A stretch of DNA of 64,000 bases, taken from the NCBI RefSeq assembly GCF_988242995.1, contig NZ_OZ547043.1, one strand, 5' to 3'. Below the pieces are notes generated by a model. The model saw only the letters and a program-made list of their open reading frames with translations. It searched no databases and had not been told where the DNA came from. How positions within the stretch are numbered: the first letter of the stretch is position 1; each line of letters begins with the position of its first letter. The translations under genes were made by a program, and so were the position numbers. This document shows, piece by piece, positions 7,826-8,236 of the stretch.

Positions 7826-8236
7826 ATGAAAACTTTTATCAAAACTTTACTCGTTGCTGTAACTATTCTGTTCTCTGTCTTCGCTACTGCGAAACAAGTA
7901 AAACTGCCAAATAACATCAAATACGTTAATACTACAGAAGCGTTTTCCTGTACCGAAATTGACGGTATGAATTGCCAGACAAAGAATCAGTTCAACTATA
8001 AAGATAACAGCTATGTTTTCGTGCTTGAACGTGGTGGTGCCTGGTGCTACGACTACACTGTCTCGGTAGTTAACCTGAAAACCGGGAAAGCACAAATGAT
8101 TGAATACGGGGACAATCAACTGTGCTCAGGTAGCAACAAACCGTTCTTCGAAATCAAAAATGGCGTACCGACGGTAGGAGTCATCGACACATCCGGAAAA
8201 CCTGTCGTTGTAGCCCAGGACAAACTTAAAATCTAA
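7826..8236 (+). CDS. small secreted Cys-containing protein (136 aa), function unknown
   Basis: Strong RBS AAGGAG 8 bp upstream; N-terminal signal peptide MKTFIKTLLVAVTILFSVFATA; six cysteines. Confidence 0.6.
   Translation: MKTFIKTLLVAVTILFSVFATAKQVKLPNNIKYVNTTEAFSCTEIDGMNCQTKNQFNYKDNSYVFVLERGGAWCYDYTVSVVNLKTGKAQMIEYGDNQLCSGSNKPFFEIKNGVPTVGVIDTSGKPVVVAQDKLKI

Follow-up and report, generated by a model that had tools for sequence, protein, structure and literature searches.

The window analyzed here is a stretch of 64,000 nucleotides (nt) from contig NZ_OZ547043.1 of NCBI RefSeq assembly GCF_988242995.1, and the subject of this report is an ATG-initiated open reading frame (ORF) of 136 codons at positions 7826..8236 of its plus strand (the target gene). 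We are confident that this ORF is a real gene, that its product is a small soluble protein, predicted to be periplasmic, of the jumbo-phage family PHROG 8968, and that the gene was captured by a chromosomal island. The observations as a whole are best explained by a phage-derived, island-captured periplasmic binding or inhibitor protein that would act as an envelope shield, a reading to which we assign a probability of about 0.35. An earlier note on this DNA had described the product as a secreted protein with six cysteines, encoded together with a gene resembling that for the lysozyme inhibitor Ivy, and had suggested that it might be another lysozyme or muramidase inhibitor, to be compared with the MliC, PliC and PliG families, while recognizing no family. 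In the matching region of Escherichia coli S88 the ORF is annotated as WP_000846713.1, a hypothetical protein.

The target protein matches the profile of PHROG 8968, a family of unknown function, with an E value of 2.6e-45 (hmmscan; residues 1-131 against profile positions 1-133 of 135). Sequence searches of Pfam, NCBIfam, PADLOC and PDB gave no significant match, and for these collections the lack of a recognizable family stands, but the PHROG match does supply one. The hits to SH3b_T (E 0.077) and DUF6520 (E 0.31) are sub-threshold noise, as is that to the BLB8/JUQZ-1 "ocin" (E 0.022; 15 bits against a cut-off of 40); the sub-threshold Pfam and NCBIfam matches are probably driven by the signal peptide. 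YfjS, YfjT and YpjK of E. coli K-12 were considered as homologs and rejected, no similarity being detected. The family is small, because an exhaustive HMMER search of 1.84 billion representatives returned only 30 protein matches; profile searching extended it to members from Salmonella, Serratia and metagenomes. A scan of GTDB genomes with a single peptide pattern found two loci. At one of these two, a target homolog is encoded, together with a YeeP-like GTPase, a YfjR-like regulator, a protein of 312 amino acids (aa) and a DUF932 protein, on an 8.9-kb contig labelled "MAG: Bacillota bacterium" (L008, JAEWTL010000095.1), which is an enterobacterial CP4-type island segment and almost certainly was mis-binned as Bacillota.

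Homologs of the target were found by tblastn in 40 phage records (E 1e-7 to 1e-9). The phage records among the matches listed come from jumbo phages with genomes of about 233-249 kb; those inspected are members of the genus Seoulvirus. The records include SPN3US and the SPFM phages of Salmonella, Lh1B and EC001 of E. coli, Proteus phage 7, and the Erwinia phages phiEaH2 and pEa_SNUABM_29. The SPN3US homolog is SPN3US_0182, whose product gp182 and its relatives are the prototypes of PHROG 8968. It is part of a run of four small genes, SPN3US_0180 to SPN3US_0183, all of which encode a signal peptide and which stand upstream of an SMC-domain gene. Profile-profile comparison with hhalign relates the gp181 family (PHROG 17072) to the target family with a probability of 97% (P 1.7e-10) and the gp183 family (PHROG 5248) with a probability of 94% (P 9e-8); the gp180 and gp183 families are related to each other with a probability of 50% (P 1.6e-4). 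On this basis gp181, gp182, gp183 and perhaps gp180 appear to be three or four tandem secreted paralogs of one superfamily. There is no mention of WP_000846713 in the literature, and gp180-183 are not mentioned in the SPN3US literature found.

The closest relative of the target outside E. coli islands (P0014, 76% identity) is encoded on contigs that come from independent samples and span 88-224 kb, with three of 221-224 kb. The gene order in this uncultured clade of phages is YfjT-like, gp180-like, Ivy-like, target homolog, gp183-like, gp184-like, gp185-like, SMC. An Ivy-like gene immediately upstream of the target is thus a feature of an E. coli-associated jumbo-phage clade with genomes of 220-225 kb: four IMG/VR viral contigs (107-225 kb) share this arrangement, with identities to the island proteins of 58-75% for the Ivy-like protein and 63-76% for the target homolog, and on phage contig L020 the two proteins are 75 and 76% identical, respectively, to the island copies. 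The same adjacency occurs in several E. coli island variants. The pairing with an Ivy-like gene to which the earlier note drew attention is therefore a conserved linkage, found on four IMG/VR jumbo-phage contigs, on three further contigs of 88-224 kb and in several island variants of E. coli.

The jumbo-phage array also contains a 153-aa homolog of K-12 YfjT (L020 4608..5069; 27% identity and E 4e-14 to YfjT, L006 13149..13616), which is a second case of a secreted protein shared between phage and island. A small periplasmic protein of the DUF1471 (YdgH/BhsA-like) type is encoded a few kb from the SPN3US array (L024 20063..20272, equivalent to SPN3US 160,063..160,272) and is another host-type periplasmic family in the phage.

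The window aligns over positions 7315..8268 with positions 5496..6444 of phage contig L020 at 78% DNA identity. The alignment begins 7 nt before the ATG of the Ivy-like gene, passes the target stop codon and the ribosome-binding site of the next gene, and stops after the first ~25 nt of that gene, which encodes 129 aa in the phage. The truncated stub of this gp183-like gene that is left in the island points to a transfer from phage to island. The comparison thus indicates that a piece of the array of ~0.95 kb, comprising the Ivy-like gene, the target gene and the first codons of the next gene, was captured into the cargo slot of a CP4-44-type island, along with a separate short phage promoter-like element from further upstream. 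The G+C content is 41-48% in the cassette, 52-57% in the flanking island genes and 44% in the phage contigs. The target copy of an O146 island is 79-81% identical to phage copies and 62% identical to the window copy, so exchange between phage and island took place more than once. Among themselves, the island variants are less similar than each is to its own, different phage lineage.

The 15-mer TCAGATATATATTAC at the core of the promoter-like element stands unchanged in front of the arrays of L020, L021, SPN3US and Erwinia phage pEa_SNUABM_29. Seoulvirus-like genomes in IMG/VR each contain 4-6 exact copies, always on the same strand, where <0.001 would be expected by chance; in SPN3US there is none in the first 50 kb and a single one between 140 and 190 kb. 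It is therefore a multi-copy motif that does not mark every operon. AT-rich early promoter motifs are used by the virion RNA polymerases of jumbo phages (PMC7598289), and by analogy TCAGATATATATTAC may act as a jumbo-phage early promoter. That an infecting phage's own polymerase could read the island copy is subject to a caveat: early transcription in these jumbo phages is reported to take place within a vesicle around the injected genome (PMC10541120). At two SPN3US sites the motif is followed by a short inverted repeat, GAGTTAA...TTAACTC (L015, SPN3US 165,692..165,780; L025, SPN3US 113,984..114,025), and a second hairpin, GGCTACC-TTCG-GGTAGCC with a T-run, lies upstream of gp180. The repeat and hairpin between the motif and the array possibly form a leader or attenuator. 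In one island variant (L013), which carries the target homolog P0046, a gene for a 179-aa GYF_2-domain protein with predicted membrane segments (6192..6731) replaces the Ivy-like gene, and the phage motif is found upstream of this gene also (5548..5561).

The expression signals of the target gene are largely as first described. The ribosome-binding site is strong, and a strong intrinsic terminator lies downstream (Table 1). The N-terminal sequence, MKTFIKTLLVAVTILFSVFATA followed by KQV, has the features of a typical Sec signal peptide under a rule-based call: basic residues at K2 and K6, a hydrophobic core with a mean Kyte-Doolittle score of 2.9 over 12 residues, and A-T-A preceding the predicted cut. 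A lipobox cysteine is absent from this N terminus. The signal peptide is as clear as had been claimed, and its features are kept, despite sequence drift, in all 27 full-length homologs, which range down to 24% identity. The protein is very probably exported, and a periplasmic location is predicted from the signal peptide. The count of six cysteines was mistaken; there are four (C42, C50, C74 and C100), at equivalent positions in the mature region of all of the aligned members except one deletion variant, and they probably form two disulfides. The homologs also keep an L-P motif at the mature N terminus and a G-G-x-A-C-x-D loop.

The Ivy-like gene ends at 7810, which leaves a gap of 15 nt to the target ATG with no terminator in it. 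Terminators at 7011..7027, closing the preceding patatin gene, and at 8378..8407 flank the pair. Because of this short uninterrupted gap and the bracketing terminators, the two genes plausibly form one transcription unit; the co-transcription that the earlier note had taken as given is plausible on these features.

In E. coli the target gene is widespread. With the gene alone as query and a coverage of at least 80%, it was found in 2,289 of 5,426 complete genomes (~42%), nearly always as a single copy and always annotated as hypothetical, and extraintestinal and O157 strains of human and animal origin commonly carry it. The ratio of nonsynonymous to synonymous substitution rates (dN/dS) is 0.23 relative to the closest phage copy and 0.18 relative to another island copy; the gene is under purifying selection, with dN/dS about 0.2. 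The intact ORF in so many genomes, the features kept by distant homologs and the low dN/dS together place it far beyond a chance ORF. These data bear on the idea that the protein has a phage-specific role, for example in lysis timing or envelope remodeling, and that the island copy is a functionless passenger. Such an origin would fit a fragment of a larger array that still ends in the stub of the next gene, whose partner is already a pseudogene in the window and for which no sigma-70 promoter was recognized, within an island of a kind that gathers debris (cbtA, DUF957 and transposase pseudogenes lie nearby). However, an ORF that is intact as an annotated coding sequence across 2,289 genomes, with a dN/dS of 0.18 between island copies, speaks against a passenger; the descent of island variants from different phage lineages suggests repeated retention, and islands of Salmonella and Serratia keep a diverged homolog together with a 312-aa partner. 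We consider a passenger unlikely.

The partner gene is intact in E. coli S88 but carries in the window an in-frame premature TGA at 7613..7615 (TGG in S88), six codons before the CKAHTC loop. Over 1,501 nt the window differs from S88 at this site only, and it is fully identical to none of the best complete-genome matches listed (the top ones are all 99.9%). The TGA is either a recent inactivation or a sequencing error. The RefSeq protein of S88, WP_001514307.1, is annotated with 227 aa (window 7127..7810). Phage homologs and many of those in E. coli begin at the second Met (window 7322), where a signal peptide of their own follows, and are 156-162 aa long; the 227-aa model is therefore probably over-extended by 65 codons that do not belong to the protein. 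The extension was found in island copies only and not in the phage contigs compared, and a phage origin for this segment was accordingly rejected.

The resemblance of the partner to Ivy is consistent but sub-threshold. Alignment with E. coli Ivy by hhalign (P 2.3e-4, 75 columns) places GCKAHTCG on ACKPHDCG, the CKPHDCG loop of Ivy. Pfam Ivy (PF08816) matches the Ivy-like protein with E 0.03 and its Salmonella homolog with E 0.0038, at 14.9-17.8 bits and below the cut-off of 21; NCBIfam PRK09993 (NF007443) gives E 0.005 at 16.7 bits, below its cut-off of 180. The best PDB profile matches (E 0.1-1.3) include all four of the Ivy structures listed. A remote relationship to Ivy is thus plausible. 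The loop itself, which in Ivy is the disulfide-framed inhibitory element with the histidine that plugs the active site, varies: (i) it is CKAHTC, the S88 type, or CKAHAC in some island alleles; (ii) it is CKANAC or CKSNAC in other island alleles and in all phage alleles; and (iii) it is CEQGNC or CERGNC in the alleles of Salmonella and Serratia. In SPN3US the paralog gp181 occupies the position of the Ivy-like gene, and because neither SPN3US nor any other deposited phage has that gene, the link to Ivy is not universal. Up to an E value of 0.01, neither the target nor its Ivy-like partner matched a defense-protein model in PADLOC-DB.

Islands of the same type in Salmonella and Serratia fonticola encode a 136-aa target homolog (33% identity) followed by a secreted protein of 312 or 313 aa. 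Residues 5-160 of the 312-aa protein are homologous to the Ivy-like protein (E 2e-21); they are followed by a linker rich in Pro, Ala, Thr and Gln and by a C-terminal half with four cysteines in the order of the family. This half matches PHROG 5248, the gp183 family, with E 0.0045, and hhalign gives P about 0.004 against both the gp183 and the target families. The 312-aa protein is plausibly a fusion of an Ivy-like domain with a paralog of the target. If the fusion is real, it constitutes Rosetta-stone evidence that both domains act on one target or complex.

Two AlphaFold runs of the monomer were made, the better one from 27 sequences. The model has a predicted local distance difference test score (pLDDT) of 73 overall and ~80 in the mature part, and is all-beta, with seven to eight strands in two meander sheets; the predicted fold resembles two four-stranded propeller blades. 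Foldseek found nothing below E 0.2, and no MliC, PliC, PliG, PliI, Ivy or Spackle chain is among the PDB structural matches. Against predicted viral structures, significant matches were confined to uncharacterized proteins that seem to come from jumbo phages, with Erwinia phages as the source of those that are named. By sequence, fold and lipobox alike the target does not resemble MliC/PliC (PF09864), whose fold is an eight-stranded beta-barrel and of which MliC has a lipobox, and for PliG and PliI there is no family or PDB structural match, a very distant fold relation being possible with a model of moderate confidence (pLDDT 73). Against Ivy there was no Pfam or NCBIfam match at E up to 1, and hhalign of the target family with E. 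coli Ivy gave a probability of 0.3%. A kinship with inhibitors of the MliC/PliC or PliG type is thus not supported, no sequence or fold similarity to these or to Ivy having been found, and structure prediction, which had been put forward as a check, returned neither a confident unrelated fold nor the fold of a lysozyme inhibitor.

The two-blade model raises the prospect that the target oligomerizes into a lectin-like beta-propeller, as a homo-oligomer in E. coli and possibly as a hetero-oligomer of gp181, gp182 and gp183 in the phages. Such an assembly might bind glycans or mask a receptor, with peptidoglycan, the lipopolysaccharide core or the periplasmic face of an outer-membrane receptor as ligand, and might block adsorption or DNA transit or protect released virions. 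The tandem phage paralogs are of similar size, and Llp of phage T5 is a precedent for a phage-encoded receptor blocker (PMC9586334). The target, however, has no lipid anchor that would place it at the outer membrane, and no sugar-binding motif was recognized in it, so we regard a propeller as improbable.

We return to the periplasmic inhibitor or binding protein, serving as a phage-derived envelope shield or superinfection-exclusion module, as a tentative account of the target itself, which is possible but doubtful and draws on analogy. The mature protein would bind or inhibit in the periplasm. Its contact site is probably the G-G-x-A-C-x-D loop at residues 70-76, which is cysteine-tethered and more strongly conserved than any other feature of the superfamily. 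The protein and its Ivy-like partner would jointly neutralize some component that acts on the envelope, the most plausible being an enzyme of an incoming phage or of a competitor that cleaves peptidoglycan. In the phage, the periplasmic array would secure the envelope of the infected cell against superinfection or lysis from without, in the manner of T4 Spackle, and a bacterium with the island copy would be shielded likewise. Proteins of the Ivy family act against C-type lysozyme and are weak inhibitors of lytic transglycosylases as well (PMC10139938). Spackle, an early protein of the periplasm, inhibits gp5, the tail lysozyme, and confers superinfection exclusion (PMC7677548), and T5 Llp acts by blocking the phage receptor (PMC9586334). 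When the target family is set beside Spackle, it is phage-encoded, its periplasmic location is predicted, and early expression is suggested by the AT-rich multi-copy motif upstream of the arrays.

Several observations weigh against an envelope shield. Neither Pfam, NCBIfam, hhalign against Ivy nor Foldseek revealed similarity of the target to any known lysozyme inhibitor, and the members of PHROG 8968 have no reported function, structure or literature. The partner is a pseudogene in the window; the phage copies (CKSNAC, CKANAC) do not keep its loop histidine, its gene was not found in SPN3US or any deposited phage, and one island variant has the GYF_2 membrane protein in its place. The target-family hidden Markov model scores about 0 on the C-terminal half of the 312-aa protein, for which the match underlying the fusion is weak (P about 0.004). 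Finally, no canonical sigma-70 promoter was recognized upstream of the cassette in the window.

An origin in jumbo phages moves the likely context from defense against animal lysozyme to conflict between phage and bacterium. The former would make the cassette a host-adaptive module that protects E. coli peptidoglycan against vertebrate lysozymes after breach of the outer membrane, with the target as a new type of inhibitor analogous to MliC, PliC or PliG. In keeping with this, the partner is a remote relative of Ivy whose S88-type CKAHTC loop keeps the histidine of the Ivy CKPHDC, the gene is common in extraintestinal and O157 strains of human and animal origin, and the target is predicted to be periplasmic and disulfide-stabilized like known inhibitors. 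But the jumbo phages that were the source of the cassette have no use for resistance to animal lysozyme, and the loop histidine is missing from their alleles; neither in sequence nor in fold is the target similar to MliC/PliC, PliG or Ivy, and the partner is broken in the window. Protection from animal lysozyme seems to us quite improbable.

The envelope-shield reading can be extended to the proposal that CP4-44-type islands and those of Salmonella and Serratia have repeatedly domesticated the secreted cassette of jumbo phages for periplasmic exclusion of the same phages, which we would put forward only as an unlikely scenario. The cassette would come from the presumed early region of nucleus-forming jumbo phages, and a block to entry in the periplasm would precede the vesicle and the nucleus that shield phage DNA from cytoplasmic defenses. 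The target and the Ivy-like protein would each neutralize a different envelope-penetrating component of the tail.

Comparison with E. coli S88 places the cassette in a CP4-44-type integrative island. It is preceded by genes for a YeeP-like GTPase, a dynamin-family protein, an RdcB/YjcZ-family protein and a patatin, and is followed by those for DUF932, an antirestriction protein, YeeS, YeeT, CbeA/CbtA and YeeW; the island adjoins tmaR-yeeA-sbmC-dacD-sbcB. The upstream operon at window 2626..6991, which encodes the dynamin-family (798 aa) and RdcB/YjcZ-family (301 aa) proteins and a patatin-like phospholipase (356 aa) and has its own terminator, lies beside the cassette in all of the E. coli island variants seen. 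Its PADLOC matches are weak (LeoBC, E 2.7e-5; a phospholipase effector, E 1e-4). The operon has the look of a candidate defense system that acts on membranes. Near window 12147..12520 the island is partly decayed in the S88 annotation: cbtA is frameshifted and is followed by DUF957 and transposase fragments. The features of the cassette are collected in Table 1.

Table 1. Positions of the cassette features in the window and of the candidate fusion protein on two other contigs
Feature	Position	Strand	Remarks
Target gene	7826..8236	+	136-aa precursor; mature protein 114 aa, 12.7 kDa, pI 8.3
Ribosome-binding site AAGGAG of target gene	7814..7819	+	6 nt before ATG; direct sequence reading
Signal peptide coding region	7826..7891	+	22 aa; predicted cut after A20-T21-A22
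Ivy-like secreted protein gene	7322..7810	+	162 aa when intact; pseudogene in window
65-codon in-frame upstream extension	7127..7321	+	Part of 227-aa RefSeq annotation; G+C 39%
Intrinsic terminator closing the putative two-gene unit	8378..8413	+	Hairpin 8378..8407, 13 pairs (8 G-C), then T-run
Remnant of next phage gene (gp183-like secreted paralog)	8235..8270	+	Ribosome-binding site and 7-codon stub MRFSAHY-stop
Jumbo-phage promoter-like element	7046..7086	+	80% identity to stretch upstream of secreted-protein array in L020
Core TCAGATATATATTAC of promoter-like element	7059..7073	+	15-mer invariant in four phages; once in window
312/313-aa secreted protein	L002 8477..9415; L005 6964..7905		Ivy-like N-domain, linker, C-terminal four-cysteine domain

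The family itself was already known in PHROGs; its provenance in jumbo phages, the superfamily of paralogs, the conserved linkage to an Ivy-like gene and the prevalence in E. coli are new. A hypothetical protein of ~42% of complete E. coli genomes, O157:H7 and extraintestinal strains included, thereby gains a provenance and a testable role. The results show gene flow between jumbo phages related to the nucleus-forming phages and chromosomal integrative islands in the form of a two-gene secreted cassette, and they define a superfamily of unstudied secreted proteins of jumbo phages that comprises gp181, gp182, gp183 and perhaps gp180. Periplasmic exclusion, if true, would be a defense that could reach phages whose enclosed DNA escapes CRISPR and restriction. 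Inhibition of peptidoglycan hydrolases, if true, would add a new family of inhibitors beside Ivy, MliC/PliC, PliG and PliI. Should the target turn out to inhibit or to exclude, it would represent a new family with a job of a known kind.

Among known systems, Ivy (PF08816, NF007443) is the closest known relative of the partner and not of the target. The partner shares with it a periplasmic location and a disulfide-framed loop (CKAHTC versus CKPHDC in Ivy); the target may act in a similar way through its cysteine-tethered conserved loop but is itself without similarity to Ivy. MliC/PliC, PliG and PliI are, like the predicted target, small periplasmic beta-rich proteins of Gram-negative bacteria. 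The likeness to T4 Spackle is a functional analogy only, both being small secreted phage proteins; Spackle is helical, whereas the target is predicted to be all-beta, and among the PDB matches there is no sequence or structural similarity between them. YfjT of the K-12 cryptic prophage CP4-57 is, like the target, an uncharacterized secreted protein that occurs in CP4-type islands as well as in these jumbo-phage arrays, but it belongs to a different family with no detectable similarity to the target and is not encoded in the window. SPN3US gp182 (SPN3US_0182, YP_009153476.1) is 37% identical to the target and has the same length, signal peptide and four-cysteine pattern; the target differs from it in being encoded as a single copy, beside an Ivy-like partner, in a chromosomal CP4-44-type island, whereas gp182 belongs to an array of 3-5 genes.

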